Source: an uncultured virus (IMG/VR IMGVR_UViG_3300021197_000608)
Taxonomy: Duplodnaviria; Heunggongvirae; Uroviricota; Caudoviricetes
IMG/VR virus record: IMGVR_UViG_3300021197_000608
Length of the DNA: 64,000 nt
Strand: one strand, 5' to 3'
Below are positions 30,964 through 56,367 of this stretch, in pieces. Position numbers and translations under genes: made by a program. A model generated the notes under the pieces. That model saw nothing but the letters and a program-made list of their open reading frames with translations. It did not search any database and was not told where the DNA came from. Positions within the stretch are counted from its first letter, which is position 1. Each line of letters opens with the position of its first letter.

Positions 30964-31224
30964 TTATTCAGTCTTTGGTGCAGAGTCCTTTAGATGTTTT
31001 GCATAAGCAGTTTTGACTGCATCAGTATGAAAATGTGCAACCATTGCTTTTACGTCTGCACTTTCGTTAGATGAATCTGAGTCTGGTGAAACAACATGGC
31101 GTGAGAAACTTCTAGAAAGTTCTGCACCATCTTCTTCAATCACAGTAGCAGTTCTAATCTGAATGTGCTTATGTTCGCCTACTACTTCAATCTTATCTTG
31201 TTCTGTACGTTTTGTAATCGCCAT
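30964..31224 (-). CDS. Small fibre-associated partner/chaperone-like protein
   Basis: MAITKRTEQDKIEVV...FSRHVVSP; strong RBS; directly follows the DDYEEGT-domain fibre gene. Confidence 0.6.
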   Translation of the reverse strand: MAITKRTEQDKIEVVGEHKHIQIRTATVIEEDGAELSRSFSRHVVSPDSDSSNESADVKAMVAHFHTDAVKTAYAKHLKDSAPKTE

Positions 31225-31278
31225 TATCTTTCTCCTTTTGTCCGCCTCTAGAATCCACTAGAGGTATAAAGTTATTTT

Positions 31279-31911
31279 TTATGTTTCTGTGATGTAACAA
31301 AAATTTAGATAAATCTCATCAGCGGCCGCTGGGGTAAGATTAAAATTGTGTGTATGCGTATTATTAAGACTTAACAAATTTGAATTTTGATTTAGTTGCA
31401 TACCAAGAAGTTTGTAATAAGAACCAGAACCAGCAGAGTTGTCATAATATTCAAATACACCTCCACTTCTACATTCATCTTGGGCGCCATTCTTTGATGT
31501 AAAAGGTAAACTTAAATACATACTTCCAACAGGAGAGGATACTGAAGCAATTCGTGGATGTCCTGTAATAGTTACAAGGCGACCAACTTTAGTATAACTA
31601 ATTGTATCAAAAGAAGTATTTAAAGTTACTGTACCTGACGTAGACATAGTTATAGCTGTTTGGTGAGTGCCTTCTTCATAATCATCCAAGGTATTAGCAG
31701 CACCAGTACCACCAATTGCGACACCAGCAGTTGCAGTAATTAATCCAGTTGATGTGAATGTTCCACTTGCAGATAGGGTTGCACCACTAAGTGTTCCACT
31801 TGCAGTGATGTTTGTTCCACTAATTGTTCCAGCACCAGCAATATTATTACTTACAGTAATATTACCAGAACCAGTTCTTGTTGCAAGTTCGTCTACTCTT
31901 ACTTTTGACAT
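31279..31911 (-). CDS. Short fibre/adhesin with DDYEEGT C-terminal domain (cassette A head 3)
   Basis: N-terminus MSKVRVDELATRTGSGNITV; NTLDDYEEGT...YTKVGRLVTI...LPFT. Confidence 0.65.
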   Translation of the reverse strand: MSKVRVDELATRTGSGNITVSNNIAGAGTISGTNITASGTLSGATLSASGTFTSTGLITATAGVAIGGTGAANTLDDYEEGTHQTAITMSTSGTVTLNTSFDTISYTKVGRLVTITGHPRIASVSSPVGSMYLSLPFTSKNGAQDECRSGGVFEYYDNSAGSGSYYKLLGMQLNQNSNLLSLNNTHTHNFNLTPAAADEIYLNFCYITET

Positions 31912-31912
31912 A

Positions 31913-33073
31913 TTATTCTTCCTCCAGTGCCGCTACTTTTGTTTCTAATGTTTCTATCTTGGCTATCGCCTCTTGGAGTGCAGCCGTAAGAAGTGGCACT
32001 AATTTTCCGTACTCTATACCTTGATACTCTGGAATTGTGTTACCATCATCATCTAGTTTATTATCACCTAATGAAACACCGTCAGGTAACTCTTCACCCT
32101 TTTGCCATACTACAACTCCATCTTTAGAACCTTTAACTACTGACGAAACAACAGTTGCAACTTCGTGTGCAATAAATCCGTCTTCCAAGGTGTTTGTTTT
32201 GTCAGAAATCCAGTTAAACTTTCTAGGCTGTAGTTGTTTAACTTTTGTTATTCCATCCGTTAAGTCTTCTATATTTTCTTTGAGACGATAATCTGAAGTT
32301 GCATTAAAGGCTGTTGCACTAGCTGCTCCAGCTTGATTTGAAGAGCCATCCATGTTGGCTTTCCATTTTAAAGTATTAGAATGATTTGCTAGGTATAGTC
32401 CTTCTTGATGACTGTAAGAACCATTTGCCCTTACTCTCATCCCATAAGGAGAGGATGCAGTAATATAATCCAAACCAAAAGTATTTGAAGCACTATTAAG
32501 TTTAAGTAATTCAAGTGATAATACACCAAATATCAATTGATCATTAGTATGGTTATACTGAACGTATCCACGATAAACATCTGCACCAGTTTGACCATCG
32601 CCAAAAAGTACAGAAGAGACACCATTAGTTGCAGCGGTAAATGCAATCTCTGAATTAGCACTGGTGTTATGGATGTGGAGTTGACGTAGAGGGGCTGCTG
32701 TGTTAATTCCGATATTGCCTGCTGAGTTTATAACAAGTCTATTGACAGCCGCATCAATATCTCTAATAGAAAATCCACTATTAGCAACTCCTGGCGTTCC
32801 TGATACTAATTGAAAGTTGTCAGCACTTGAATTTGAGTGCTGAAGGCTTATAGAAGGAAGACCACTTGATGCAGTATTAATAGTCAGCGCACCACTCATA
32901 GTTGTTGCACCAGTAACACCAAGTGTTCCACCAACAGTTGCGTTTGATGTAATTGCAGCTGTACCTTGTCCAGTAATATTTCCAGGCACCACAAGATTAT
33001 GTCCAGAACCTAAACTTACGTTTCCAGAACCAGCAACATTTTCAATTGTATCTACTTTAATCTTTGAGGACAT
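31913..33073 (-). CDS. Tail fibre protein with C-terminal intramolecular chaperone (peptidase S74-like) (cassette A head 2)
   Basis: TSDYRLKENI...GFIAHEV...YGKLVPLLTAALQE plus terminal coiled coil; GNIGINT repeat. Confidence 0.85.
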   Translation of the reverse strand: MSSKIKVDTIENVAGSGNVSLGSGHNLVVPGNITGQGTAAITSNATVGGTLGVTGATTMSGALTINTASSGLPSISLQHSNSSADNFQLVSGTPGVANSGFSIRDIDAAVNRLVINSAGNIGINTAAPLRQLHIHNTSANSEIAFTAATNGVSSVLFGDGQTGADVYRGYVQYNHTNDQLIFGVLSLELLKLNSASNTFGLDYITASSPYGMRVRANGSYSHQEGLYLANHSNTLKWKANMDGSSNQAGAASATAFNATSDYRLKENIEDLTDGITKVKQLQPRKFNWISDKTNTLEDGFIAHEVATVVSSVVKGSKDGVVVWQKGEELPDGVSLGDNKLDDDGNTIPEYQGIEYGKLVPLLTAALQEAIAKIETLETKVAALEEE

Positions 33074-33102
33074 TTAACTATTTCCCTATAATTTTATTTA
33101 TA

Positions 33103-33396
33103 TCACAATGCACTTGCATCATCTCTTGCTTTACGGTTCTTATAATCACTATGAGCAAGAACAAGTTTTACAAAGTCTGCTTGGTTCGATGGAATTGGAT
33201 CATTGAAAGATTCATCATTCATTAACCTTGTTGTCCATTCATTTTGCATACGTTTCCAACAGTTATTAATTTTACCATCTATTGCACCTTGAACCCATGA
33301 ATCTAGACCAGCATTGTCTGAATCATTATACAAGTCGTTAGATAGTATTTGTTGTTGTGCATCTGTTAGTGTAATTGTTATAGTATGATTTGCCAT
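33103..33396 (-). CDS. Small fibre-associated hypothetical protein
   Basis: ORF with AAGGAG RBS directly after the C1q-like head gene; TATAAATA at 33095-33102 follows its stop. Confidence 0.6.
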   Translation of the reverse strand: MANHTITITLTDAQQQILSNDLYNDSDNAGLDSWVQGAIDGKINNCWKRMQNEWTTRLMNDESFNDPIPSNQADFVKLVLAHSDYKNRKARDDASAL

Positions 33397-33431
33397 TTTT
33401 ATCTCCTTTAAGATTGCTTATTTCAGCATGA

Positions 33432-34532
33432 CTAGGCTACTAAGTAACCATAAAATTGTGATGAATTAGTAGTAATAATATCCATCTGTGCAGACCCAGA
33501 ATTAGGTGAAATTTGAACCGTTGCTGTGTCACCAGCATCCATATCACAAAGTAACGACCCATTTTGTCCAAAATAACCATCATCTGCCAGTACATCGCCA
33601 GGTTTTAAATCAATATAATAAAGAGCATTAGAAGTATTAAATTGAAACCAGACGTAGTTGAAAGCACTATCCCAATTTGCATAATTGAGATTACACCCTA
33701 TCATATACTTGCCAGTCACAGGCGCAGTAAACGTATAATTAGATGTATTATAATCTGCGTTTTGGTCAAAAACTTCAGAATTAAAAGCAATATTATAAGT
33801 ACTATTGGTTGCAACATTATCTTGAGCAGAAGTAAGTCTAGCTAAAAATGCTGGTTGCGTAGGCATGGTTACATGACCATTTGCATCTATGTTTATTCTA
33901 TTGACTTGATTAGTAGCAAGAGCTAAATCATTAACTGTAGCACCTTGTTTTATTTCTGGAGCAATACCAGTTACCGATGGAAAAATAATTCTACTTGCTT
34001 CAGTAAGTCTAGCGGCATCAAATTTTGTAACTTGACCAGTACCACCACCGACAACAAGTGCAAAGTGGTGTGTAGTTGCTGTTGCAACAAAAGTAAAAGA
34101 GTGTGTACCAGTACCTAAGTTAAGGGCACTAACATTTTGATTTCCATTTGCAGATGTACCTATGTACAATCTAGAATAACTACCAGCATCTTGTGTGACA
34201 ACAACAGATGCAATATAACTTCTACCAACGACAAGATTATCGACTTGTTGGTTTGCAAAACCGTTAACACCACTGTTGGGTGTTAATTGAAGTGCTCCAG
34301 AACTAATTGCAAGAGTTGAACCAGTTGCAGCCCAACCAGTAGTATTGGAAGTAAAATCTCCATTAGTAATAAGATTTGTAGTAGTTCCTACACTTATACT
34401 TTGTTGAAATGTGGAAGCGCCTGATACTGTAAGATTATCAGGTTCAAGAGTATGTCCAGATTCAATCTTGACTTTGTTTGCATCTGCACCAGAGGTTGCA
34501 CCAGCTATTGTTGTGACTGTAAGTTTACTCAT
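33432..34532 (-). CDS. Adhesin with carbohydrate-binding-like middle domain and C1q/TNF-like C-terminal domain (cassette A head 1)
   Basis: NLITNGDFTSNTTGW; P.QPAF...FNSEVFDQ...YTFTAPVTGKY...FYGYLV. Confidence 0.65.
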   Translation of the reverse strand: MSKLTVTTIAGATSGADANKVKIESGHTLEPDNLTVSGASTFQQSISVGTTTNLITNGDFTSNTTGWAATGSTLAISSGALQLTPNSGVNGFANQQVDNLVVGRSYIASVVVTQDAGSYSRLYIGTSANGNQNVSALNLGTGTHSFTFVATATTHHFALVVGGGTGQVTKFDAARLTEASRIIFPSVTGIAPEIKQGATVNDLALATNQVNRINIDANGHVTMPTQPAFLARLTSAQDNVATNSTYNIAFNSEVFDQNADYNTSNYTFTAPVTGKYMIGCNLNYANWDSAFNYVWFQFNTSNALYYIDLKPGDVLADDGYFGQNGSLLCDMDAGDTATVQISPNSGSAQMDIITTNSSQFYGYLVA

Positions 34533-34534
34533 AT

Positions 34535-34867
34535 CTATACCACCGAAAGTTCGCCAGAGATTGTAACTGTAATTCCATTAGCGATTGTAATCTCGCCTGC
34601 ACATGCAGCATTCTGATTTGCTGCAATTGTAAAATTTGTAGTTACCGTCTGGTCATTTAGATAAAAAACTGCATCAGAACCACCACCAGTTGCACCACCA
34701 CCTACAGATGTCCAATTACCACCGTTGTAACCTTCAAATGCAGTGTCGGTTGTGTTAAATCTTAGCACACCTTGTGCTGGTGAACCTTCTCTTTGTGCAG
34801 TTGTACCTGTCGGAACGTCAATTCCTTCAAGTGCTACACCAACATTATTAGCTCTTGTTAGTGGCAT
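34535..34867 (-). CDS. Small fibre protein, putative hub of cassette A
   Basis: PTGTTAQR...GVLRFNT motif; C-terminal TIAANQNAACAGEITIANGITVTISGELSVV. Confidence 0.6.
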   Translation of the reverse strand: MPLTRANNVGVALEGIDVPTGTTAQREGSPAQGVLRFNTTDTAFEGYNGGNWTSVGGGATGGGSDAVFYLNDQTVTTNFTIAANQNAACAGEITIANGITVTISGELSVV

Positions 34868-35286
34868 TATTCTTTTCCTTTTAACATCTTTTGTAGTTCA
34901 GCTGTTGAACCAACAAACAATGCATTCGTTACATTCTTTGGTGCAGAACTAGGAACTTCTTTTAGTTTCTTCATCTTCTCTTGTAAATCACCAAGTTTCT
35001 CTGTTACGTCTGCAACCTGTTTTATTAAATTCCCAGCAACTTCATAGCTTCTAGGGTGTTCTGATTCTCTTGCGAGGTCTAGAATACCATCAATTGCATC
35101 TTGTCCTCTTTCAATCAGATTGTAAAAATTCTCTCGTTGATATTTATAATCATTGTCTATATCCTGTTCATTGTTTTCTGTTTTAGGAACAAGAACAGGT
35201 TTTGGCGACGTTACACTTTTAGTAGTTGTTTCCACAACATCTGTAATACCAAGAACATTATCTAAAATATCAGTTTGATTTGACAT
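34867..35286 (-). CDS. g16: Terminase small subunit (gp16)
   Basis: DYKYQRENFY.LIERG, HPRSYEVAG.LIK, NALFVGSTAELQKML. Start reassigned to ATG 35286. Confidence 0.93.
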   Translation of the reverse strand: MSNQTDILDNVLGITDVVETTTKSVTSPKPVLVPKTENNEQDIDNDYKYQRENFYNLIERGQDAIDGILDLARESEHPRSYEVAGNLIKQVADVTEKLGDLQEKMKKLKEVPSSAPKNVTNALFVGSTAELQKMLKGKE

Positions 35287-35296: not shown

Positions 35297-35704
35297 TCAA
35301 GACGGTTCTGTAGGCCAAGTAACATTACCAAGCACACCATCTACTAAAGTCGGTGATGCACCGTCTGGAAGGTCTCTTAGATTTTTACGATATGTTTTCC
35401 AAGCAGCTGACATAGTAACATCACTATTACCCATCCAATCTGTCTCTGTTAATTTTGCATTTCGTTGTTTACGAAGTTCGTTCATAGGTGCTGCATCGTC
35501 CATTTCTTTTTGTTTGTCTGATACTTGTTTCCAAGTTACACCCCATTTTGAAGTGTCAGCAGATTCGATTGCAGAACCTTCTGAATCTGCACCAGTAACT
35601 TTTCTGAACATTTCTTTGAAGTGATCTTCTGTAGTAGGCTCGCCACGCAAAACCCACTCATTAATACCAAGAGCACTTAATGCTTCTGAAGCTGTTGTTG
35701 CCAT
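35297..35704 (-). CDS. Tail fibre assembly chaperone-like protein
   Basis: C-terminal LRKQRNAKLTETDW...WKTYRKNLRDLP...WPTEP; TATAAATA at 35739-35746 upstream. Confidence 0.75.
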   Translation of the reverse strand: MATTASEALSALGINEWVLRGEPTTEDHFKEMFRKVTGADSEGSAIESADTSKWGVTWKQVSDKQKEMDDAAPMNELRKQRNAKLTETDWMGNSDVTMSAAWKTYRKNLRDLPDGASPTLVDGVLGNVTWPTEPS

Positions 35705-35758: not shown

Positions 35759-36265
35759 CTATCCTATTAAATGTCCAAAAAATTGAGTGCTTCCGTAATC
35801 AGCACCAGAAATGTTTCTTGCAGGGCCATAAGCTCTTGCTTTAACAGCAACCCCAGCACCTAAACTTACTTGAGTTGAACAACATGAACCATATCTAGCA
35901 TTAGAACCTTTAATATAAAAATCTACAGCCCCAACTGTAGTTGATCCTGCTTGAATTGATACGATACCTTGAGACTCAGAACCAGTATTTGCAACATATG
36001 AGTAAGAAAGATAAAAATAATAAATACCAGCAACAGGCGTTGTAAAGGTATAATTACTCGTATTGAAGTTACCACCAATGTCATAATTTTCTGCATTAAA
36101 TTGAATTGTAGTAAAGGTATTCGCTGACGGAGCACTTTGGTCACCAGTCATATATGCTCTAAATGCTGGTCTTGCTGGTTGTAAAACCCTACCAGCACTA
36201 TCAATAGTTATTGCAGACGTTCCACCAGTATGTTGTATATTTTGTACTTTTAATGTTGATGCCAT
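35759..36265 (-). CDS. C1q/TNF-like adhesin (cassette B head 3)
   Basis: GRVLQPARPAF...FNTSNYTFTTPVAGIYYF...FFGHLIG. Confidence 0.7.
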   Translation of the reverse strand: MASTLKVQNIQHTGGTSAITIDSAGRVLQPARPAFRAYMTGDQSAPSANTFTTIQFNAENYDIGGNFNTSNYTFTTPVAGIYYFYLSYSYVANTGSESQGIVSIQAGSTTVGAVDFYIKGSNARYGSCCSTQVSLGAGVAVKARAYGPARNISGADYGSTQFFGHLIG

Positions 36266-36275
36266 ATCCTATTCC

Positions 36276-36806
36276 TTACTGTGCGATTTCTATTATAGAC
36301 CAACTACAAGAGTTTTGATTAGAAAAACTACCAGACCAACCAAGATATACTGTGCCAGAGGCACCACCTCTAAAATGCATTGTGTACGTTATTGCACTTG
36401 TAGTTCCAGCTATATCTTTAATATTAGTAATACCTTGACAATCCCAAGATTGCTTACCACCACTTGCTGATTCTGTATCCATTAAATTTCCAACACCAGA
36501 CTTATTAAGAACAACATAGGAATATGCACCAGCAGCATTGTTATGTGCTGAAACAAGATAACTATGAAGAAGTATACTATTACTATATTTCGGTGTAATT
36601 GTTAATGTATGACCAGATGAAGTATAAGACGTTGATGTAGTAGTAGCTCTTGGAGTCCAAGTTGACGTATCTGAATGTACAGATTGAACAACCATCCCAG
36701 GCGCTTTGATAGAATTAGTGTCAGTTCCAATTATTTGTTTACCAGTAGGAACTGTAATCGTTGAACCACTTGCAGTTGTTAGATTATTTACAAATAGAGT
36801 ACTCAT
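36276..36806 (-). CDS. Short adhesin-like protein (cassette B head 2)
   Basis: PGMVVQ...TITPKYSNS.L...AITY...IIEIAQ; paralogue of 36803, 47554 and 48093. Confidence 0.6.
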   Translation of the reverse strand: MSTLFVNNLTTASGSTITVPTGKQIIGTDTNSIKAPGMVVQSVHSDTSTWTPRATTTSTSYTSSGHTLTITPKYSNSILLHSYLVSAHNNAAGAYSYVVLNKSGVGNLMDTESASGGKQSWDCQGITNIKDIAGTTSAITYTMHFRGGASGTVYLGWSGSFSNQNSCSWSIIEIAQ

Positions 36807-37324
36807 TGTGAAATCTCCTCAACTATAAAGTATGCGGTATAATAACCAGCTTGGTTTATACGAATAGCTTCGGTAGTGGAATTGTATATTCTTGCTTGTG
36901 CTTTTATCACCCTAGCATTAGTGTTACTAGCAGCAACCTCTGCAAACTTAACTTGTCTCATATAATTATTTGGGCCAGTTCCAGCGCCAGCGTCATTTTG
37001 GAAGTAATGTTCATAGTTTCCAGCAGCACTATAGTCTAGAGTAGTTCCGTCATGTAATAATTTTACTATACCACCAGCGTTAGTATTTGTGCCTGTAGTA
37101 TATACGTTTAAACTGTAATTAAATGTTATACATAAAGTACTTGACGCAAACTTTGGGGTAAAGGTTAATGTAGCACCACCTATATCAGAAAAAGATGTTG
37201 TAGTATTAGTATATGCAGTATTAAATTTAGTGGACTGTCTTTGTATTAAACAACCAGCAGGCAACTTTACATTTGCAGCTGTAGTTGCACCTACGATATT
37301 ATCTACTGTTAATGTTGAACCCAT
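36803..37324 (-). CDS. Short adhesin-like protein (cassette B head 1)
   Basis: MGSTLTVDNIVG...PAGCLIQ...TFTPKFASS...EEISQ. Confidence 0.6.
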   Translation of the reverse strand: MGSTLTVDNIVGATTAANVKLPAGCLIQRQSTKFNTAYTNTTTSFSDIGGATLTFTPKFASSTLCITFNYSLNVYTTGTNTNAGGIVKLLHDGTTLDYSAAGNYEHYFQNDAGAGTGPNNYMRQVKFAEVAASNTNARVIKAQARIYNSTTEAIRINQAGYYTAYFIVEEISQ

Positions 37325-37333: not shown

Positions 37334-37561
37334 CTATACAATCGTCAAGTCACCATTAACAGTCAAGTTAACAGTTCCAGTTGTAGATACAGTCAAAGGC
37401 CCAGCGCATGATGCATTTTCACCAGCAGCGATAGTTGTACTTGTATTTAAAACTGATTCATTTACACGAAAAATATCACCCTTACCATCTGTGGCATCAC
37501 CTCTGGCTCCATTTTCTCCTTGGAAGAAACCTACTCCAGCTACTGGTTTTCTAATTGGCAT
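37334..37561 (-). CDS. Minimal hub protein of cassette B
   Basis: GFFQGENG...DIFRVNE...TTIAAGENASCAGPLTV...LTVNGDLTIV; homologous to the C-termini of 48582..49103 and 34535..34867. Confidence 0.6.
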   Translation of the reverse strand: MPIRKPVAGVGFFQGENGARGDATDGKGDIFRVNESVLNTSTTIAAGENASCAGPLTVSTTGTVNLTVNGDLTIV

Positions 37562-37589: not shown

Positions 37590-38411
37590 TTATTCATCTT
37601 GCCCAGTTACTGGATTATATTCTTTGGCATCTTCAAAGAAACTTGTTGTTTCATTAAATCCAAAGTTATCATCATCTGGGTCAAAGTCAGTAGCTGCAAC
37701 TGAATTGGGTGTTGGAGTAACCGAATATCTTTGTTCTCTCTTAGGTGAATTAACAGGCATATCTGCATATTGGTCAACTTGTACAGAGCGAATAACATTT
37801 GAAGACGTTACTGGGCCGTACAAGTAATACTTTGCAGTAAAAGAAAGCGTATATACAATACTCCTTCTACTTGTAAATTCACCTTCATAATCATCTTCAT
37901 AATTAATACTGTTTAAAACAATAGGAACGTCACGAATTATTTCTAGTTCTGGAACTTCTCTCATTGTCACTGTATATTCTGGTTGAAAGTATGGAAGGAT
38001 CTGTTCTACAATTTGAAGTGCATCATCAGAATTCTTTGACAGTATATATAACTCAAAATTAATATTGTAAGGAACAGGCATAAAACCAGATTTAACTTGT
38101 TCTGCATCAGCTCCATCTGCAACCTTTTTAACTTTCATAACTTTGTTAAGTTTTCTGGTTGAGTCATATGTCATACCAGAAATCTCAAAACCAATTCTTG
38201 GTAATGTGACTGCTACCTTTTTATTAAGGTTTGGATCTTCTGTAAGTCTAGATAACCACTTCTGTTTAGGCCCATACGCAAGAGGCACTTTCATGGTTTG
38301 AATTACATTACCACTATTATCTTTTTTCGTAAGTTGAATTTGATTAAATAATGTACCAAATGCAACTACCACATTTCTTGTGGATTGATTATAAAAATAT
38401 TGTCCAATCAT
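37590..38411 (-). CDS. g15: Tail sheath stabiliser / completion protein (gp15)
   Basis: YFYN, FGTLFN, KVPLAYGPKQKW, LPRIGFE, QIVEQILPYFQP. Confidence 0.95.
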   Translation of the reverse strand: MIGQYFYNQSTRNVVVAFGTLFNQIQLTKKDNSGNVIQTMKVPLAYGPKQKWLSRLTEDPNLNKKVAVTLPRIGFEISGMTYDSTRKLNKVMKVKKVADGADAEQVKSGFMPVPYNINFELYILSKNSDDALQIVEQILPYFQPEYTVTMREVPELEIIRDVPIVLNSINYEDDYEGEFTSRRSIVYTLSFTAKYYLYGPVTSSNVIRSVQVDQYADMPVNSPKREQRYSVTPTPNSVAATDFDPDDDNFGFNETTSFFEDAKEYNPVTGQDE

Positions 38412-38414
38412 AGT

Positions 38415-39329: not shown

Positions 39330-39332
39330 TGT

Positions 39333-44160: not shown

Positions 44161-44225
44161 CGAACACAGTCTCCTTCTTCTTCTATTTATAAGGATTGTG
44201 TGTTAGATGTTTTTAGTTTTTAAAA

Positions 44226-49127: not shown

Positions 49128-49301
49128 TTAGTCTGCGTCTTCAATAGTTAATTCGCCTGCATCAACTTGTTTTAGAATTTCTGCATAGTGTATGTTGTTA
49201 GCGTCTAGTGGTACTGACATATCTACACCATCAATATTTGCATTGATAGATAAGTGTGTATCATCAAAACTATCGTTATACTTTGCATTTTTAATAATCA
49301 T
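49128..49301 (-). CDS. 57-aa partner protein, absent from the ORF track (paralogue 2 of 3)
   Basis: MIIKNAKY...IDGVDMSVPLDANNIHYAEILKQVDAGELTIEDAD. Confidence 0.8.
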   Translation of the reverse strand: MIIKNAKYNDSFDDTHLSINANIDGVDMSVPLDANNIHYAEILKQVDAGELTIEDAD

Positions 49302-49303: not shown

Positions 49304-50413
49304 TTACATCTCCGCATCGAATAGTAATTTTGCATCATCACCACGAATCCCTAGCATAGAGCCTCTTCTACCATCTGTTCCGAAGCTTCCGTTTGATGCA
49401 ACTGTCCATGCTAACTTACATCCCTCAGTTCCAGCCTCATTAAGGGATACCGAAGAAGCCGCATTCCACGCCGTTTGTGGAATTAATGCATAAAATTGAC
49501 CTATTGGTGTCGCAGTAACACTAGGTGTTACTCTCATTGGTGTTGGAAACTTAGTAAAAGTTTCAACAATAGTTGAACTGCCCCAATATCCCATACCTAT
49601 ATTTTGATTAGAACTAGACCCTTCACGAGTAAGAACATGACAATATCTTTTACAAAGTTGTAGTTCTTCACCATGTGATCGGTGTTCAAAATCTGTGGCA
49701 GTATCGCCAATTTCTAATTGGACGCCTGTGAGTTGGAATGTTGAACCATTAGTTGCAGCCAAATTAACTTGGTCAGATTTAGCCATAGCAAATGAACCGA
49801 TCCAAGCATCAATAGTATTTGATTGATAACTTGTACCAGTTCCAAGTGACCACATTATATACATGCCAACGGCATTTGTATTTACCCAAGTTCCAGCGGT
49901 ATCAGGAGTTATTGTAATAGTCTTCTTTTCCCAAGTATTAGCAGAACTTATAGTATAACCTTTAAGTTGTGATCTATTAGCAGCACCATTAAATATAGAG
50001 AAATAATACTGGCCAGTAACACTTGATTTTACATGGAATGATAGTGTAAGAGTTTTAGCATTAGCAGAACCAAAATTGAGATGAGCTATATCTTTTCCTT
50101 CTATTCCTTGTATTATTCTATGAAATTCAGTTCCAGCAAGAGATGCGTCAGCAGTCGTTACCGTCAACTTTATAGAATGTGCAAATCCAGCTGGTGCATC
50201 AGAAACTGTTTGAGCAGTCATCGCCGATGAACTGTTCTCATTAATCCTAAAACGGTCTGCAATATAACCAGTTATTGAGTTTCCATTTACTACTGTAAAA
50301 GAAGATCCGTTATGGCGTTGGTCTACTTGCATAGCACCATTATGAACTATATTCCTACGACCACCAACTTGTGATACATTCAAAAAATTTGGATTTACTT
50401 TACTGAGCGCCAT
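49304..50413 (-). CDS. Lectin/beta-sandwich-like putative receptor-binding protein (paralogue 2 of 3)
   Basis: RNIVHNGAMQVDQR...ADRF...QGIEG...TGVQLEIG..ATDFEHR...FDAEM. Confidence 0.65.
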   Translation of the reverse strand: MALSKVNPNFLNVSQVGGRRNIVHNGAMQVDQRHNGSSFTVVNGNSITGYIADRFRINENSSSAMTAQTVSDAPAGFAHSIKLTVTTADASLAGTEFHRIIQGIEGKDIAHLNFGSANAKTLTLSFHVKSSVTGQYYFSIFNGAANRSQLKGYTISSANTWEKKTITITPDTAGTWVNTNAVGMYIMWSLGTGTSYQSNTIDAWIGSFAMAKSDQVNLAATNGSTFQLTGVQLEIGDTATDFEHRSHGEELQLCKRYCHVLTREGSSSNQNIGMGYWGSSTIVETFTKFPTPMRVTPSVTATPIGQFYALIPQTAWNAASSVSLNEAGTEGCKLAWTVASNGSFGTDGRRGSMLGIRGDDAKLLFDAEM

Positions 50414-50471: not shown

Positions 50472-50819
50472 TTACTCTTCTTCTTTCCATTCTTTATTCT
50501 CTTCATCCCAATCATAATCTTTTCCGTCAGTTGGATATGCCTTAGGAGACACCCAAATACATTTATCTTCATTTAAAGTCCAACTTGGATATGGTTTTGG
50601 GGGAATAAATGCATCTCTAGTTGAATCATATGTACCACCAATTATGGCATAGTTTTTTCTTAAAGGAGTACCACCATCTGAATGCACACCTTCTTTTGTA
50701 TTGTATGAAGTTTGAATCCATTCGCCTGGAGAGTCATCAATAAAAGTATCCATAAATTCTTTTTCTGCTACTATAACATTTGTTACTGTTCCGTTAAGTA
50801 CTTTTGCGTAATGTGCCAT
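50472..50819 (-). CDS. Partner protein of the glycine-rich adhesin
   Basis: MAHYAKV...WIQTSYN...RKNYA.IG.TYD..RDAFIPPKPYPSW; directly follows the Gly-rich gene. Confidence 0.65.
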   Translation of the reverse strand: MAHYAKVLNGTVTNVIVAEKEFMDTFIDDSPGEWIQTSYNTKEGVHSDGGTPLRKNYAIIGGTYDSTRDAFIPPKPYPSWTLNEDKCIWVSPKAYPTDGKDYDWDEENKEWKEEE

Positions 50820-52127: not shown

Positions 52128-52466
52128 TTATGTTTTTTCCATAATTCCCATTACGACATCAAGTGAGGAAGCTGTTCCTGCCTTGACTTTGAGAATATCA
52201 GTTGCTTCCAGAATATATTTCTGTCCAGCAAGTGTTTCCAATGTAGTATTCGCTGGAATACTAACATTCTCTAATAGTTGATGTGTTGTAGCTGGACTAG
52301 CAGAAGAATCAGTAAATTGAACTTGAACAGTTGCGGCCGCTGTTGTCTTATTAGCGATGGCAAGTCCTAGAACAACTACTTGAGTACTTGCTGGTGCAGT
52401 ATACAATGTATCATAAGCAGCATGATTTACGTTAGCAAGAGCTGCATTTTTGAAAGTGTTCGCCAT
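52128..52466 (-). CDS. Small adaptor-like structural protein (MAN.FKN family)
   Basis: MANTFKN...LYT...IAN...IP...L...GQK.IL...D.L.V; paralogue of 55288..55635. Confidence 0.65.
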   Translation of the reverse strand: MANTFKNAALANVNHAAYDTLYTAPASTQVVVLGLAIANKTTAAATVQVQFTDSSASPATTHQLLENVSIPANTTLETLAGQKYILEATDILKVKAGTASSLDVVMGIMEKT

Positions 52467-52481: not shown

Positions 52482-53084
52482 TTATCCTAAAGCAATTGCA
52501 AGAGCAGTTGCGTCATCCTCTGGGTCAAAGTTCAACTTAGCACGAGTAACTGCTCCATTAGCAACAGTATTTAGGGTGTTAGTTCCATTTAATTGTATAA
52601 CTTGAATATTCTTTGTTCCTGCTGTTGGAGCGCCTGTAAATGTAATTGTATCTCCTGATACTGTGTATGCATATGAAGAACCATATCTTTGATATACGTT
52701 ATCAACAAACACAGCAAAGTTAGCAGCAGTTGCAACAGGCGTTCTTGTTAGAGTAAATGCAACCGTAGAACCATCACCATTAAAATCGTCAATATGTGTA
52801 TTTGAATTAGCAGGTTTTGCAGTAACAAGTTCATTACCCATAAAGACAATAGAAACCCTATCCGTATTTGGTATTGCCTCAGAAAATGTAATCTGAGGTT
52901 GTCCTGATATATTACTTGTAGTATATGAGTATTCTGGTTCTTGAACAATACCATTCAACACCACCAACAAAGAAGAAGGTGGTGCCATAAAATCAAGATT
53001 AAAGGTAGTAGCAGTGCCATTACCTAATATAACTTGTCTATCAAATACACCATAGGAAGGTGTTGCTCCAATATAATCTGACAT
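52482..53084 (-). CDS. Structural protein with two beta repeats and an AIALG C-terminus
   Basis: MSDYIGATP; GNGTATTFNL and GDGSTVAFTL repeats; C-terminal ATALAIALG. Confidence 0.65.
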   Translation of the reverse strand: MSDYIGATPSYGVFDRQVILGNGTATTFNLDFMAPPSSLLVVLNGIVQEPEYSYTTSNISGQPQITFSEAIPNTDRVSIVFMGNELVTAKPANSNTHIDDFNGDGSTVAFTLTRTPVATAANFAVFVDNVYQRYGSSYAYTVSGDTITFTGAPTAGTKNIQVIQLNGTNTLNTVANGAVTRAKLNFDPEDDATALAIALG

Positions 53085-53106: not shown

Positions 53107-53280
53107 TTAGTCTGCGTCTGCAATGGTTAAAGTGCCTGCTTTAACTTGTCTTTGAATTTCTGCATAATCAGTATTGTCTGGGTCTAGAGGAACGCATATT
53201 CTTTCACCATCAATAATAGCTACTATTGCATCATTAGTTCCCTCTATCATACTTGTATATTGCGCTGATGTAATATTCAT
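53107..53280 (-). CDS. 57-aa partner protein, absent from the ORF track (paralogue 3 of 3)
   Basis: MNITSAQY...IDGERICVPLDPDNTDYAEIQRQVKAGTLTIADAD; GAGG RBS. Confidence 0.8.
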   Translation of the reverse strand: MNITSAQYTSMIEGTNDAIVAIIDGERICVPLDPDNTDYAEIQRQVKAGTLTIADAD

Positions 53281-53289: not shown

Positions 53290-54468
53290 CTATAATTCTG
53301 CATTAAAAGCCACACTTGCAGATGCATGATTACAAAGGTTTCTCATGCCAGTTCCAGCGGTTACGTTTACCGTAGGTGTTCCGTATAATGTTGCATTTTG
53401 AGTGTTAAACGCAAAAGCGTTCCATGCATTAGTCATGTTAGTACTAGTAGCACCTCCGTATGCTAAATAATAATTACTTCCAGAAGTTGCAACTAATGAA
53501 GGAGTGGCCCTCATGGTTTCTGGAAACTTAATATTGCAATTTAATTGCGTTGCTACATACATATCTCCTCCACCCATAAAGGAAGTTGTGCCACTGGCGT
53601 GGTGATAATAATACCTATGACAGGCCGAAAGATGGTCATTGATGGAACGGTGTTCAAATGGTGTCGCTGCACTGCCAGTTTCCAATTGGATGCCTGTGAT
53701 TTCCCAATCATTACTTGTACTATCTGCAAAGTTTACTTGTCCAGTTGCAGACCCAGCATCAACAGAACTTGCCCATGAAGTATATAAACTTCCAGTATTT
53801 GTATCTGCACCAGCAACTAAATTAAAAAATAATTCTAAAGAACTAGCATTATCATTATCTAATTTACCAGATGCATCTGCTGGAAAAGTGATACTATATC
53901 TGGCCCAGTTTGCATTTGCAACTGTATAAGAACCATTAACCTTTCTGGTATTATCTCTATCAAATATTGAAACAGTATATACACCAGTTTTATTTGTTTT
54001 CACATAAAAAGATAAAGTCATTGGTAAAGCATCAGAACCATGTCCTTTTGCAAATCTTTGACATTCTTGACCTTCAAGTTTAGTTACGATATATACTTGT
54101 TCGTTGGCTGCAAGAGAGGTGTCTGCTGTTGTACAGTCCATCTTTAATGATTTAGAAAACCCTGCTAAATCTGTTACATTGTTTTGAGAACAAGTATATG
54201 TACTTCCAGTATTTTGTTTATATACTGCAAACCTATCTAAAACATATTGATTACCAACATTGGATGATGAGGTTTGTCTTTGAGATATCACCATTTCGCC
54301 ATTGACAATAACATTTTTTCCACCACCACCGATACCAGCTGTTTTTGCTGGTGTGATTGCACCATCAGCAATCTTTGCAGTTGTTACTGCATCATTAGCA
54401 ATATCAGTTGCAGTAAGAGTTACATCACTATTTAAAAGTTCAGCAAGATTTTTTGAATTACTAGCCAT
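53290..54468 (-). CDS. Lectin/beta-sandwich-like putative receptor-binding protein (paralogue 3 of 3)
   Basis: KNVIVNGEMVISQR...LDRF...KLEG...TGIQLETG..ATPFEHR...FNAEL. Confidence 0.65.
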   Translation of the reverse strand: MASNSKNLAELLNSDVTLTATDIANDAVTTAKIADGAITPAKTAGIGGGGKNVIVNGEMVISQRQTSSSNVGNQYVLDRFAVYKQNTGSTYTCSQNNVTDLAGFSKSLKMDCTTADTSLAANEQVYIVTKLEGQECQRFAKGHGSDALPMTLSFYVKTNKTGVYTVSIFDRDNTRKVNGSYTVANANWARYSITFPADASGKLDNDNASSLELFFNLVAGADTNTGSLYTSWASSVDAGSATGQVNFADSTSNDWEITGIQLETGSAATPFEHRSINDHLSACHRYYYHHASGTTSFMGGGDMYVATQLNCNIKFPETMRATPSLVATSGSNYYLAYGGATSTNMTNAWNAFAFNTQNATLYGTPTVNVTAGTGMRNLCNHASASVAFNAEL

Positions 54469-55277
54469 TAGATTTGATACCTCGCCATAATTTCTGAAAG
54501 AGCAACTGGAGCAAATGTTAGTGTAAGTGTCACACCACTAATTGAATAGTCACTAGTTGGTTTAAGAGCAATACCGTTATAGAAAATAAATGCACTATTG
54601 GTTGTTGCACCAGCAGTACCTAAAGTAAATGCCACTGTAGAACCATCACCAGTGAATGTGTCGTACTGAAAGTCTGTACTTCTACGAGCAATTGATCTGA
54701 TTGTTAAATGTTTTGTTTCAATCTCTGCAGCAGCTTCTGGTGCTGTTGTGAATGTTAATGTTGTACCAGAGAGACTATAGTTTGTTGTTGCCTTCTGAAG
54801 AATACCATCAACGAAAACCATAATACCAGCTACGTTTGCTGGTTCTTCCGAAAGAGTAAATGCAACCGTAGAACCATCACCAGTAGCAACATCTGTTGTA
54901 AAACTTTTTAAGTTTGCAGCAAGTTCGTTTACACCAACAGAACCAGCTGGTGGTTTAATGTTGATTGTTCCAACACCTCTGTGTATCATGTAAATCGAAC
55001 CACTAGATGGTATTGCACCAGCGAATTTTAAAATCTTTGGATTACCATCTGCGTCATTGTGAATTGTATATGCAACATCTGGTTCTTGTACCACGTTATC
55101 TAGAACTACATGTATGTTTTCTGTATTTCCACCAGGCACTTCTATTGATAATGCTACTGCATTAGTATGAGCAACACCACTAACTGTAATGGTACTCAAG
55201 TTAGAACCTAGAAAATCTTCTTTTAGGAACGCTGGGGATACTTTATTTAAGTGTGGTACACCAATATAGTTAGACAT
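54468..55277 (-). CDS. Structural protein with three beta repeats
   Basis: MSNYIGVP; VVLDNVVQEP repeat and two GDGSTVAFTL repeats. Confidence 0.65.
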   Translation of the reverse strand: MSNYIGVPHLNKVSPAFLKEDFLGSNLSTITVSGVAHTNAVALSIEVPGGNTENIHVVLDNVVQEPDVAYTIHNDADGNPKILKFAGAIPSSGSIYMIHRGVGTINIKPPAGSVGVNELAANLKSFTTDVATGDGSTVAFTLSEEPANVAGIMVFVDGILQKATTNYSLSGTTLTFTTAPEAAAEIETKHLTIRSIARRSTDFQYDTFTGDGSTVAFTLGTAGATTNSAFIFYNGIALKPTSDYSISGVTLTLTFAPVALSEIMARYQI

Positions 55278-55287
55278 ATTTTACCCC

Positions 55288-55635
55288 TTATGTTACATCT
55301 TGTAGAATTGATGCAACAACATCTACAGTTGCAGCCGAAGCATATACTTGCACTTTATCGTTTCCGTTTAAAACAACCTTCTGTCCTGATACTACTTTCA
55401 ACGCCGAACCAACTGGTACTGGTGCATTCTTAACAATGTGGAAACTAGCTGACGCACTACTATCCCTTACTAAGACTGTTACCGTTACAGCAGAAGTTCC
55501 TGTGTTTGCAATATCAAGTTCAATAAGAATTGAATTAACGGCAGATGAACCATCATTAGCAGTATAAACATCAGTCGGCGAACTAGAATTAGTACTGATA
55601 CCTGTTGCAAAAGCATTTTTAAAATTGTTTGCCAT
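55288..55635 (-). CDS. Small adaptor-like structural protein (MAN.FKN family)
   Basis: MANNFKN...VYT...IAN...VP...L...GQKVVL...D.V.V; TATAAATA at 55657-55664 upstream. Confidence 0.65.
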   Translation of the reverse strand: MANNFKNAFATGISTNSSSPTDVYTANDGSSAVNSILIELDIANTGTSAVTVTVLVRDSSASASFHIVKNAPVPVGSALKVVSGQKVVLNGNDKVQVYASAATVDVVASILQDVT

Positions 55636-55668
55636 TCTATTCTTTTCCTTTTATTTTATTTATAACGA

Positions 55669-56367
55669 TTAACCAAGAGCAACCGCAAGAGCAATACCGA
55701 AGCCTTCAGTAGCAATTTTACCACCAGAGGCTGGGAATGTTAATGAACCACTCATAACACCAGCACTATCAATCAATCCCTGAGTAGTTATAGTACTCTG
55801 AGTAGTAATCTTACCTACAGATTCTATATCACCAGTAACATCTAGTCCTTCATTAATTTGAATACCACCAGAGTAAACTGTTAGTTTATTAGAATTATTA
55901 AATGCAAGATGCACATTATTTTTTGCACCAGCGTCATCACTTTCTAGAAGAATGATATAACCATCTTCCAATAGAATTTGACTACCAGCATTCGCACCAC
56001 CAACATCTGTTCCATCTATCTGAAGAACATCTAAGTCAGTGATAGTGTTGATAATTAGATCACCTGTACCACTGTGCTGTATACGAGAATTTGTTGCATC
56101 ATGGAATAGTTGTAAATCATCATCATTACCAAACTTAACTCTAAAATTAGTTGGGCCCGTAGAGTCATTAAAGTCAATAACACTTGGAAATAACACACTA
56201 CTCAAAGCAGCATCTATTTCAGTTATTGATTCTGCAATAGTAGATACAGCTGTTCCATTAATAGTAGTTGGAAGAGATGCTACATCACCGACATCTGCGC
56301 CGAGATTATTAAACTCTACTCTCCACTGTTCAAATGTGGTACTAGCTGGTGCGTTACGATTTGCCAT
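55669..56367 (-). CDS. Baseplate-proximal fibre anchor-like protein with AVALG C-terminus
   Basis: N-terminal TFEQWRVEFN; FGNDDDLQLFHD repeat; C-terminal GFGIALAVALG. Confidence 0.6.
   Translation of the reverse strand: MANRNAPASTTFEQWRVEFNNLGADVGDVASLPTTINGTAVSTIAESITEIDAALSSVLFPSVIDFNDSTGPTNFRVKFGNDDDLQLFHDATNSRIQHSGTGDLIINTITDLDVLQIDGTDVGGANAGSQILLEDGYIILLESDDAGAKNNVHLAFNNSNKLTVYSGGIQINEGLDVTGDIESVGKITTQSTITTQGLIDSAGVMSGSLTFPASGGKIATEGFGIALAVALG

Follow-up and report, generated by a model that had tools for sequence, protein, structure and literature searches.

It is rather likely that the fibre region of this phage (positions 30,964 to 56,367 of the window, i.e. the whole 64,000-nucleotide stretch of DNA that was analysed) encodes tail or baseplate fibres in many short polypeptides, which would be joined non-covalently by two sets of conserved terminal modules, here called joint A and joint B. 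The pieces are predicted to join because the conserved end-peptides recur side by side in many other marine phages, and the sequences suggest that, once joined, they show about a dozen different receptor-binding heads. The joints would be both end-to-end and branching, and chaining B and then A would give a series of stalk, connector, hub and heads, which in the podovirus HMO-2011 is present as a single gene row.

The first-pass annotation had proposed reusable joining terminal peptides for four pairs of motifs and, built from them, a putative single branched tree of about 30 proteins. Comparative evidence bears this out for the hub end with its heads and for the ALG end with the MAN.FKN protein, which are well fitted by joints because peptide-conserved ends occur on unrelated proteins, because terminal position and adjacency are strict in several phage families, and because Melnitz offers a fusion. 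The F.AE[ILM] pair appears to be a duplicated cassette instead, and the GG[ST]F/KRS pair synteny within one lineage. We infer from sequence that the paired ends bind each other, and solely from labels in databases (e.g. 'virion structural protein') that the proteins belong to the virion; the stoichiometry is a prediction too, and a hub might carry all three heads together or just a single one of them.

Genomic context

The phage is a T4-like marine myophage with Methylophilales phage Melnitz as its nearest relative, and Melnitz and the window are syntenic gene for gene. All genes of the fibre region lie on the minus strand. The surrounding and interspersed genes are:

56593..63105, minus: DUF4815 giant structural protein, 2170 aa (Pfam PF16075, 182.5 bits), C-terminus ..RIIALAL
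37590..40148, minus: homologues of T4 gp13, gp14 and gp15, neck proteins and tail sheath stabiliser (PF11649, 112 bits; PF16724, 283 bits)
34867..35286, minus: small terminase subunit (phrog_445; over residues 19-157 of the listed ORF, 86% identity with Melnitz M197)
30964..31224, minus: 86-aa protein (phrog_6228)

The DUF4815 protein forms the upstream border of the fibre region, while the gp13-gp15 stretch (78% nucleotide identity with Melnitz) gives context. For the small terminase subunit MSNQTDIL is probably the true start, rather than that of the longer listed ORF. In phage S-T4, a look-alike of the 86-aa protein comes after heads.

Hub ends and the heads encoded after them

Joint A would consist of an anchor protein that has no receptor-binding domain and terminates in a ~45-aa hub end, set off by a flexible glycine linker, and of a docking peptide of ~14-24 residues (MS.L.V..I...) that starts each next gene, typically three, and would be followed by a fast-evolving head (EIAQ type, C1q-like, S74-type or others). 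The genes concerned are:

48582..49103, minus: hub 1, g48582, FIG anchor (1-101) and hub end (about 125-173) without a head domain
47054..48569, minus: hub 1 heads g48093 and g47554 (EIAQ/EISV type) and g47054 (C1q-like; PF00386, 25.8 bits), assigned by N-terminal motif
37334..37561, minus: hub 2, g37334, 75 aa, little beyond the hub end
35759..37324, minus: hub 2 heads g36803 and g36276 (EIAQ/EISQ type) and g35759 (C1q-like, 31.4 bits), assigned by N-terminal motif
35297..35704, minus: tail fibre assembly chaperone, last gene of cassette 2 (PF16778 Phage_tail_APC, 45.3 bits)
34535..34867, minus: hub 3, g34535, 110 aa, in which a collar motif is followed by the GGGATGGG linker and the hub end
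31279..34532, minus: hub 3 heads g33432 (CBM_4_9 and C1q-like), g31913 (fibre and Peptidase_S74 chaperone domain) and g31279 (Pfam, N-terminal motif, orthologous order)

A 97-aa gene product, g33103, sits in between among the hub 3 head genes.

As had been claimed, the hub motif terminates g34535, g37334 and g48582, and three MS.L.V..I-type starts come after each. The alignment of the three hub ends has 17 invariant columns, and the position of the module is strictly terminal: it lies at most 3 aa from the C-terminus in 105/105 ORFs from 80 loci, and it is C-terminal in 119 of the best 120 of 2212 longer homologues of hub 3 (one without a match, none internal). Among the top 150 of 2542 representative clusters, 119 matches are complete, and 118 of these are C-terminal as well. 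Identity between hub orthologues, those of hub 2 included, is 68-99%. The carriers span 72-996 aa and their N-terminal parts are mutually unrelated (T7-tail, Mtd_N, collagen and others, including the T7-like fibre of P-SSP7).

In 80 loci fetched by the hub end, the first downstream ORF matches the HMM of the head N-terminus in 81/95 cases, the 14 misses starting with near variants (e.g. MAGTLTVDN, MSEVRADTI). Of the 205 ORFs with the head motif, 202 are found no further than 2.5 kb downstream of a hub end, compared to none of the 165 minus-strand ORFs of at least 100 aa having the motif. Exactly three head genes follow in 35/35 orthologous cassettes. In P-SSP7, a 715-aa T7-like fibre is followed by heads of 193, 198 and 191 aa, and the layout is also found in MEP402, Vibrio phage 1.232.O, S-T4 and HMO-2011, all five being cultured phages of other types.

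A fused alternative occurs in Melnitz. M179 shares the anchor of g48582 (74% identity over residues 1-101), while its residues 124-272 align to positions 15-168 of the head profile (probability 98.4%); the anchor is thus fused directly to a head, without the hub end and without the first 14 head residues, i.e. the docking peptide, and the fused form stands in for the pair. In Legionella phage LME-1, residues 498-656 at the C-terminus of orf22 are homologous to the EIAQ-type heads (g47554 matches them with E 5e-16; PDB 9EFK) and sit on a T7-like fibre (PMC12407071). The head is covalently fused there, with neither hub end nor separate head genes; the distal part of orf22 was left unmodelled in the map (PDB 9EFK; PMC12407071).

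Some observations count against joint A. In Melnitz a C1q-like head precedes the hub. The hub monomer model (pLDDT 69.6, moderate) has no fold match at E <= 0.001; in the AF2 model of hub 3 the linker is disordered and the hub end reaches pLDDT 74-84. Furthermore, none of the 120 best longer homologues or 119 complete cluster matches has a hub end running straight into an MS.L.V..I head. This absence, together with the modelling of the hub end as a small self-contained module, would suit a rather unlikely reading in which the motifs at the ends act as signals for folding or assembly instead of joints between fibres, adjacency reflecting co-expression only. The hub end would then belong to a fibre that stands by itself, as its C-terminal module for trimerisation or as its tip, and MS.L.V..I would attach every head directly to a common baseplate site. 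However, g48582, g37334 and g34535 lack a receptor-binding domain and the heads lack an anchor, and in Melnitz the same anchor and head form one covalent chain.

The heads are hypervariable behind their conserved starts: among head-1 orthologues (n=37) the N-terminal 24 aa are 86% identical, versus 19% for the remainder, and the same N-terminal types carry mixed-and-matched head families. Over the first 24 codons the same codon is used at identical residues in a fraction of 0.80-0.85, compared to 0.63-0.68 in the control genes (gp15, the small terminase subunit and the chaperone) and 0.49-0.66 in the head bodies. Given this raised synonymous conservation, DNA-level homology for recombination contributes to the conservation of the head 5' ends, which counts against docking as its sole cause. 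One could go further and regard the conserved gene borders mainly as recombination linkers for the swapping of head cassettes, with the peptide motifs as a by-product; the values of the head bodies would suggest that the 5' end was homogenised and that the alleles brought in behind it are older, and the mixing of head families would follow. This is very unlikely as the main explanation, since synonymous conservation is not raised in the hub end (0.66), the ALAIALG/MANTFKN junction of joint B combines strong peptide conservation with free variation at synonymous sites and in the spacer, and the motifs persist between phage families at 30-50% protein identity, with DNA homology gone. Such linkers are, moreover, compatible with docking.

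The ALG end and the candidate MAN.FKN connector

Joint B would run from a stalk protein of any length with the C-terminus ..ALAIALG, via a conserved 110-aa jelly-roll MAN.FKN protein encoded next, to a protein with an M.[YF][IL]G..P N-terminus that resembles the T7 fibre attachment domain and bears a head or a hub end. The genes in question are:

55669..56367, minus: g55669, 232 aa, C-terminus GIALAVALG (ALG type), having only its two ends in common with Melnitz M168
55288..55635, minus: MAN.FKN copy 1, g55288, 115 aa, 35% identical over the full length to g52128
54468..55277, minus: YIG-anchor protein, g54468, 269 aa, repeated GDGST..F beta domains, no head domain (phrog_18673 tail fiber)
52482..53084, minus: 200-aa protein, YIG N-terminus, DDATALAIALG C-terminus
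52128..52466, minus: MAN.FKN copy 2, g52128, 112 aa
50831..52117, minus: g50831, 428 aa, YLG anchor, collar motif and glycine-rich head (PF21722 Gly_rich_2, 66.9 bits; phrog_18673 over residues 1-111)
50472..50819, minus: 115-aa MAHYAK.. protein, candidate chaperone (phrog_7759)

The expected ends are in place, AVALG on g55669 and AIALG on g52482, with g55288 (MANNFKN) and g52128 (MANTFKN) after them and then g54468 (MSNYIGVP) and g50831 (MPYLGSTP), g54468 having G.P where G..P had been given; TATAAATA stands upstream of MAN.FKN copy 1 (55288..55635). The double ends ascribed to 52482, 48582 and 40176 are likewise present. The T7-like character of g54468 is weak (PF03906 Phage_T7_tail, 22.7 bits, under the 25.2 cutoff). 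The 115-aa MAHYAK.. protein, probably a chaperone, comes after glycine-rich heads in the window as well as in Melnitz (M172, M176).

When the MAN.FKN protein was used to fetch 80 loci, 76 of their 798 complete plus-strand ORFs had the ALG motif at the end, and 72 of the 76 stand directly upstream of a MAN.FKN gene. The adjacency enrichment predicted for other phage genomes is found for both joints (72/76 here, 202/205 for the heads) and exceeds chance, although these counts overstate independent support, most counted loci being orthologous syntenic regions. Over distinct contexts, orthologous and non-orthologous, the upstream ORF ends in an ALG-type motif in 69/69, whereas a YIG-type start (M.[YF][IL]G) follows downstream in only 56/71. 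ALG-ending proteins range from 58 to 889 aa and have at least a dozen different N-termini. At the junction the amino-acid identity is 0.85-0.86, with a codon identity at identical residues of only 0.41-0.51 and intergenic gaps of 3 to 32 nt: at joint B the peptide rather than the DNA is conserved, i.e. selection acts on the peptide. It also occurs in HTVC010P, S-TIM5 and HMO-2011. Against it counts g40176, which ends in ALG yet is followed by gp13.

The AF2 model of g52128 (pLDDT 93.5) resembles trimeric jelly rolls (Foldseek TM 0.44-0.58), which makes the MAN.FKN protein a candidate jelly-roll connector of the trimer-forming kind. Relatives number at least 503 in viral contigs, and an alignment of the protein shows 42-99% identity. 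If the ends were signals, the MAN.FKN protein could serve the ALG-ending fibre upstream of it as a chaperone or a tip adhesin, as do gp38 in T2-type phages and Tfa in Mu. The order of fibre and then chaperone or adhesin is a usual one, with pairs present here in the family-C cassettes (see below) and with g35297 (PF16778), and the protein was never found fused to a neighbour, the one longer homologue being an apparent artefact. On the other hand, it is conserved, whereas true tips vary, and ALG-ending proteins go down to 58-70 aa, too small for fibres that require a tip.

Duplicated cassettes and the KRS fibres

The remaining fibre genes are:

53290..54468, minus: family-C head 1, g53290, 392 aa, ends FNAEL (31-33% full-length identity to g49304 and g45952; C-terminal part phrog_4492 tail fiber)
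53107..53280, minus: family-C partner copy 1, 57 aa, ..TLTIADAD (51-56% identical to g49128 and g45760)
49304..50413, minus: family-C head 2, g49304, 369 aa, ends FDAEM
49128..49301, minus: family-C partner copy 2, g49128, 57 aa
45760..47049, minus: family-C head 3, g45952 (ends FSAEI), and its 59-aa partner g45760
43567..45740, minus: g44226 (504 aa), g43825 (111 aa; fibre assembly, phrog_3304) and g43567 (83 aa, ends LSGGSF)
41794..43545, minus: 583-aa fibre g41794, Mtd_N-like IKRS N-terminus (PF18454, 17 bits, below cutoff; orthologues), ends IDGGTF
40176..41771, minus: 531-aa fibre g40176, LKRS N-terminus, IAMGIALG C-terminus (orthologues)

The F.AE[LMI] ends of g53290, g49304 and g45952 do each have a 57-59-aa gene next to them, but sequence comparison favours a cassette of two genes that is present three times, consisting of a full-length paralogous head and a small partner. 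The partner is probably a chaperone: M178, its homologue in Melnitz, bears the annotation 'tail assembly chaperone', and the 57-aa copy at 53107..53280 has no Pfam or PHROG match. The N-terminus of g53290 (MAS.SK..AEL) is common to Melnitz M171, whose head differs.

Similarly, the GG[ST]F ends of g43567 and g41794 precede g41794 (..LQIKRSSGSTAPSSLQDGEMAY) and g40176 (..LKLKRSHTHSTIPSTSDLIEGEVAV), respectively, as described, with the P, L and GE of the KRS motif offset by 1-2 residues between the two genes, but synteny within a single lineage is what points to this pairing. Among relatives of g40176, a version of 66-70 aa consists of the two ends only, and Melnitz has a split form.

For these two pairs ordinary paralogy and synteny suffice, i.e. 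a tandem duplication of fibre cassettes that left recurring ends and neighbours without any function of the pairing. Families A, C and D are indeed full-length paralogues, and Melnitz is syntenic throughout. Extended to the whole region, this explanation is quite improbable, being disfavoured for joints A and B, where ends are kept on unrelated proteins (ALG ends on 58-889 aa with at least a dozen N-termini, hub ends on 72-996 aa), head N-termini are 86% and bodies 19% identical, and the arrangement recurs in myoviruses and podoviruses.

Comparison with known systems

The principle of docking joints is already known from podophages that infect Klebsiella (KP32, K11, KP34), in which RBP1 has an anchor and a branching domain and RBP2 a conserved docking peptide, as established experimentally (PMC13352976). 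As here, the primary protein bears the virion anchor and docking platform, and secondary binders from adjacent genes start with a short conserved peptide and have exchangeable heads (PMC13352976). No sequence relation was found (the hub end lacking sequence matches in Pfam, NCBIfam and the PDB). The platform here differs in that it is confined to the C-terminus, as a ~45-aa module preceded by a glycine linker, and in that typically three heads come after it rather than one; binding is experimental there and inferred here. Multi-polypeptide side fibres have been proposed for the marine podoviruses SIO1 and ICP2 (PMC4819975).

The T4 long tail fibre (gp34-gp35-gp36-gp37) is likewise a serial fibre whose genes lie side by side and in which a small joint protein links the proximal to the distal part, and has dedicated downstream chaperones (gp38/gp57A). 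No homology to gp35/gp36 was detected in the fibre region; unlike these, a jelly-roll protein would form the joint here, and its binding partners would be an ALAIALG tail and a T7-fibre-like N-terminal domain.

In the four-tailspike complex of the Ackermannviridae (CBA120, ViI) and in G7C gp63.1/gp66, the N-terminal domains of some spikes carry others, giving, as here, a multi-level complex with several specificities per virion. These are large XD/gp10-like domains on enzymatic tailspikes, in contrast to short peptides with small lectin-like, C1q-like or EIAQ heads; the sole structural echo is a non-significant Foldseek match (E 0.26-0.46) of the hub model to the N-terminal parts of CBA120 TSP4/TSP3. 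In the BppU/BppL tripod of lactococcal phage TP901-1, a trimeric hub holds three receptor-binding trimers via its C-terminal part. Its three heads are identical and come from one gene, whereas here they come from three different genes, with N-termini that are distinct and conserved in order.

The fibre region and its relatives

Every gene between 29.3 and 63.1 kb of the window is carried by the minus strand. Pfam matches were obtained to the T4-type gp13/gp14 neck proteins, the tail sheath stabiliser gp15, the small and large terminase subunits (TerS and TerL) and a 2170-aa DUF4815 protein, and the T4 order gp13, gp14, gp15, TerS, TerL was confirmed (PF11649, PF16724, PF11053, PF03237, PF17289), which corresponds to a Kyanoviridae-related T4-like myovirus module. 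The gp13-gp15 DNA is 78% identical to that of the Methylophilales (OM43) phage Melnitz, with which the synteny is almost gene for gene; kinship with the pelagimyophages Mosig and HTVC008M and with the cyanomyoviruses is more distant. Because of this Pfam content, and of the DNA identity and synteny with Melnitz, the region is, judging from its sequence, read as the fibre genes of a T4-like marine myophage. It holds two extra fibre cassettes, one in the gp15/TerS interval and one in the TerS/TerL interval, and by our own count the window encodes at least 13 head-like domains and ~7 chaperone-like genes.

The small and large terminase genes are separated by an entire cassette of a hub gene (i.e. 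a gene ending in the hub end described below) and its heads (30964-34867, minus strand). In T4, these two genes are adjacent. In Melnitz, one 677-aa F5/8 type C domain protein occupies the interval instead of a fibre cassette. The small terminase gene itself was listed as follows.

34867-35340, minus strand: TerS ORF of 157 aa; its alignment with Melnitz TerS (139 aa) begins at residue 19 (MSNQTDIL..)

The listed start is therefore probably 18 codons too early, and with the later start the ORF no longer seems to overlap the chaperone gene g35297 (genes being named by their lower coordinate). A T4-type late promoter consensus, TATAAATA, stands just upstream of g55288 (about 55636-55668, minus strand) and of gp13 (about 40149-40175, minus strand), and was not found upstream of g52128.

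Terminal motifs and protein families

The first-pass annotation had described recurring C-terminal motifs, each followed by a gene with a recurring N-terminus, and had interpreted them as docking peptides of a branched fibre assembly. Upon translation all of these motifs were present at the named genes, although the spacings given for them are approximate only; the observation itself is real, and the docking interpretation is supported in part. The families concerned were defined by blastp among the window proteins.

Protein families of the fibre region (genes, strand, family, basis)
g55288, g52128; minus strand; MAN.FKN family; 35% identity over the full length
g54468, g52482, g50831, g48582; minus strand; family with the YIG-type (M.[YF][IL]G) N-terminal domain; blastp
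g53290, g49304, g45952; minus strand; family-C heads; 31-33% identity over the full length
g53107, g49128, g45760; minus strand; 57-59-aa partners of the family-C heads; 51-56% identity
g48582, g37334, g34535; minus strand; hub-end proteins; alignment A1
nine heads; minus strand; common part only the N-terminal MS.L.V..I stretch; alignment A2

The C-terminal domains of the nine heads vary (EIAQ-type, C1q-like, Peptidase_S74 fibre and others), with C1q (PF00386, cutoff 23.7 bits) found above cutoff in g47054 (25.8), g35759 (31.4) and g33432 (26.7). Among the YIG-type proteins, g54468 matches Phage_T7_tail (PF03906) at 22.7 bits, below the cutoff of 25.2, and the others have no match; Mtd_N (PF18454) matches g41794 at 17 bits, below the cutoff of 26.3, and does not match g40176. 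The chaperone gene g35297 is a Phage_tail_APC (PF16778, 45.3 bits versus a cutoff of 26.6). No NCBIfam family was assigned to any of 14 proteins, and a PDB sequence search with the hub, a family-C head and MAN.FKN gave nothing under E 0.04. One of the YIG-type proteins, g50831 (50831-52117, minus strand), combines a YLG anchor, a P.GTTAQRP collar motif and a long glycine-rich domain (PF21722) in a single protein.

Not all of the proposed pairings are of the same nature. The ends described as F.AE[ILM] followed by a 57-59-aa partner do recur, but full-length paralogy explains them as a triplicated two-gene cassette of head and small partner; in Melnitz, the homologous partner is annotated as a tail assembly chaperone. 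Melnitz M171 carries a g53290-type N-terminus on a Gly-rich head, not on a family-C head. The pairing of a GG[ST]F end with a KRS-type start was recovered in 20 distinct contexts, all within a single lineage. The third protein of this series (g40176, 531 aa, 40176-41771) has relatives in a 66-70-aa version that consists of the KRS-type start and the IALG end only, and its Melnitz counterpart is a split pair, M187 and the 71-aa M188; the constant parts of this protein and its relatives are the two ends, not the middle. In five of the fetched loci (L249, L265, L303, L304 and L309) the 66-70-aa protein lies directly upstream of gp13.

The proposed ALAIALG/MAN.FKN/YIG joint

The second pairing, in which a protein ending in ALAIALG is followed by a MAN.FKN protein and then by a YIG-type anchor protein (the putative joint B), was followed in 80 loci fetched by the MAN.FKN protein from at least 503 relatives, representing 73 distinct contexts. 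The ORF upstream of MAN.FKN ends in [AS].A.AL[GS] in all 69 contexts that have an upstream ORF, and these ALG-ending proteins range from 58 to 889 aa with at least 12 unrelated kinds of start. Of the 798 complete ORFs in these loci, 76 end in the ALG motif, and 72 of them directly precede the MAN.FKN gene. Downstream of MAN.FKN, 56 of 71 ORFs have a start of the M.[YF][LI]G type.

The junction is conserved at the peptide level, with 85-86% amino-acid identity over the last nine and first eight codons; at identical junction residues the codon is shared in only 41-51% of comparisons, and the spacers vary from 3 to 32 nt. The AF2 model of MAN.FKN is a jelly roll of high confidence (pLDDT 93.5) with a TM-score of 0.44-0.58 to trimer-forming jelly rolls, among them the Sf6 needle knob, TNF-family ligands and a phage cement protein. 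MAN.FKN is hardly ever part of a fusion: the search for fused forms gave one, a 307-aa protein with an aminotransferase Pfam domain, which was set aside as probably an artefact.

HTVC010P, S-TIM5 and HMO-2011 have the triad as well. In HMO-2011, both putative joints lie in a single gene row, directly after the nozzle gene (as assigned in PMC4819975).

gp43: 593-aa side-fibre-like protein, ending in AMAIAL
gp42: MAN.FKN homologue
gp41: protein starting with MPYIG and ending in the hub end
gp40 and gp39: two heads
gp38: chaperone-like protein
gp37: third head

The hub end and its heads

The other widespread candidate joint (joint A) would connect a C-terminal hub end of ~45 aa with the products of downstream head genes starting with MS.L.V..I. 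Scanning viral contigs with the hub alignment gave 360 relatives; 80 loci were retained, and in all 105 hub-bearing ORFs of these loci the hub motif lies at most 3 residues from the C-terminus. A downstream ORF is present for 95 of these hub ORFs; scored with an HMM made from the nine window heads, 81 of the 95 downstream ORFs open with the head motif, the 14 misses starting with near variants, and 202 of the 205 motif-bearing ORFs fall at most 2.5 kb downstream of a hub end. In the gp15-TerS cassette exactly three heads lie between the hub and the PF16778 chaperone in 35 of 35 readable loci, a chaperone of the g35297 type ending the cassette each time. These 35 loci are orthologous, which means that the three-head count demonstrates conservation rather than independent origin.

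This dependence on orthologous loci is partly removed by wider database searches, in which the terminal position is kept. Among the best 120 of 2212 longer homologues the hub end is C-terminal in 119 and internal in none. A search of 1.84 billion representatives yielded 2542 hub-end clusters at E <= 0.001, and of the best 150 of these, 119 hold a complete hub end, C-terminal in all but one (118/119). The exception, P0150 (127 aa), has 35 odd residues after the hub end and resembles a gene-call artefact, and no fused hub-head protein was found among the best 120 longer homologues and the best 150 of the 2542 representatives. The carriers of the hub end span 72-996 aa and have unrelated N-terminal parts (T7 fibre attachment domain, Mtd_N, collagen and several unnamed). 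PF03906, for instance, matches the hub-end relative P0026 at 58.2 bits, and the P-SSP7 fibre begins with a T7-like motif. This 715-aa T7-like fibre has the hub end at its C-terminus, and downstream of it come heads of 193, 198 and 191 aa, a chaperone-like gene and a fourth head; small head genes also follow MEP402 gp60, Vibrio phage 1.232.O gp17, a 544-aa protein of S-T4 and HMO-2011 gp41. In a second, podovirus-like set there are three head N-terminal types, whose order a<b<c is reversed in 0 of 25 contexts; the C-terminal domains are mixed and matched, each kind with its own small downstream gene. NGS-type first heads follow 24 of 30 W-type hub ends and 0 of 36 no-W hub ends, which suggests that hub-end subtype covaries with first-head type, in a comparison that is confounded by lineage and based on post hoc regular expressions.

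Some hub-end relatives (P0002, P0026, P0038 and others) carry a precomputed PF26696 match (PTL_trimer, Atlas output). In P0122 (3733 aa), P0124 (4696 aa), P0149 and P0242, 14-53 repeated stretches match the N-terminal part of the longer hub orthologues (positions about 5-68 of their profile), which makes this segment a common fibre repeat that has no relation to the hub end.

Hub and first head could conceivably be joined by stop-codon read-through. The spacers are in frame in cassettes 1 and 2, i.e. those of hubs g48582 and g37334 (12 and 9 nt), but the frame is not kept in cassette 3, that of hub g34535 (2 nt), nor in Melnitz (10 nt), many orthologous loci likewise having 10 nt; read-through was accordingly rejected.

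Joint A is read as a probable physical joint between the hub end and the head N-termini, which the protein sequences support in part. No receptor-binding domain is present in the hub proteins and no anchor in the heads; g48582 has an anchor-like N-terminus (phrog_18673, residues 1-151) besides its hub end, and g37334 and g34535 have a hub end without a recognisable anchor. Hub orthologues are 68-99% identical to the window hub, and orthologues of the first head are 86% identical over the first 24 aa and 19% over the rest. A conserved N-terminus on a variable body is the usual mark of an attachment site on a diversifying receptor binder. In Melnitz, M179 consists of the g48582 anchor (74% identity over residues 1-101), a short linker and a head that aligns to positions 15-168 of the head profile (probability 98.4%); it has no hub end, and the first 14 head residues are missing as well. 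A covalent link in Melnitz therefore corresponds to the hub-end/peptide pair in the window phage.

A further argument for this reading is that the EIAQ head also forms the C-terminal domain of a tail fibre in Legionella phage LME-1 (PDB 9EFK, E 5e-16), whose structure is described as having 6 x 3 fibre chains with the distal part unmodelled (PMC12407071). In the AF2 monomer of hub g34535 (mean pLDDT 69.6), a disordered GGGATGGG linker lies between a small collar and a hub end of moderate confidence (pLDDT 74-84); Foldseek gave no match to this model at E <= 0.001 (best E 0.26).

Conservation at the head gene borders

Whether conservation of the head N-termini extends to the DNA was assessed by how often identical residues use identical codons. 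The same-codon fraction is 0.63-0.68 in the controls (gp15, TerS and chaperone) and 0.66 in the hub end, 0.80-0.85 in the head N-termini (first 24 codons; 36803-37324, 36276-36806, 33432-34532) and 0.49-0.66 in the head bodies. At the DNA level the head genes are thus additionally conserved at their 5' ends, with older alleles making up the head bodies, which suggests that heads are replaced by recombination at the conserved border. Such recombination would complement the proposed docking of the head N-termini and not replace it.

Branching fibres and a possible address code

The principle of such joints is already known. For Klebsiella podophages, secondary receptor binders that carry a conserved docking peptide, together with an anchor and a branching platform, are described as experimentally established (PMC13352976), a comparable anchor/branching-platform/docking principle has been described for Ackermannviridae, and multi-polypeptide side fibres of marine podoviruses have been proposed by analogy with T4 and K1-5 (PMC4819975). 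Secondary binders of the KP32-type system combine a short, conserved N-terminal peptide with a variable body, and the nine window heads likewise share such a motif; the hub end has no sequence or fold match to the T4 gp10-like branching domain. It has no Pfam, NCBIfam or PDB sequence match, and neither the hub end (2542 clusters) nor MAN.FKN (at least 503 viral-contig relatives) matched a family in the Pfam, NCBIfam and named PHROG libraries searched. Searches of open-access papers and bioRxiv turned up no description of the hub end, the triad or the three-head rule, and none appears in the accessible text of the Melnitz paper or of the structure papers on P-SSP7 and P-SCSP1u. The hub end and the triad are widespread in marine phages.

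A further-reaching reading, which we consider rather unlikely, is that the termini form a positional address code common to marine phage families, multi-level and with one anchor simultaneously holding three different head trimers. The MAN.FKN jelly-roll trimer would then cap the ALAIALG-ending stalk, a YIG-type anchor would dock on this trimer, and the C-terminal hub end of the anchor, on flexible glycine tethers, would hold three different head trimers at once. Three non-equivalent positions would be specified by the N-terminal peptides of the heads, which are related without being identical. In favour of this reading are the constant gene order of the peptide types, never reversed in the 25 contexts, and the three-head count in 35 of 35 cassettes. 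The head N-termini also resemble another repeat of the last strands of the hub (LTV.G.LTIV versus TLTVDNIVG, and VTV.SGS.W versus IAINGSGTI), a likeness that suggests docking by continuation of a beta-solenoid. If so, phages of streamlined oceanic bacteria would display at least 12 receptor binders and exchange them gene by gene.

Distal fibre architecture is unsolved even for the best-studied marine phages: a 2026 cryo-EM preprint reports the first 117 residues alone of the P-SSP7 fibre as modelled, and the distal fibre parts of P-SCSP1u are given as unresolved in its structure paper. The hub-end/three-head layout predicts the P-SSP7 fibre tip and the genes that encode it, and like predictions follow for HMO-2011-, HTVC010P-, S-TIM5- and Melnitz-type phages, whose hosts are among the sea's most abundant bacteria. 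Were the joints real, host range would be determined by small, exchangeable head genes, identifiable in sequence via their docking peptides, making virome host prediction and head-swap experiments directly approachable.

In the HTVC010P record (L314) the MAN.FKN homologue is followed by a 325-nt stretch without an annotated gene (3367-3690), and the next product, of 107 aa, resembles the C-terminal part of an EVAG/EIAQ-type head, so that a gene may be split or mis-called here; one neighbouring translation in this record contains an X.
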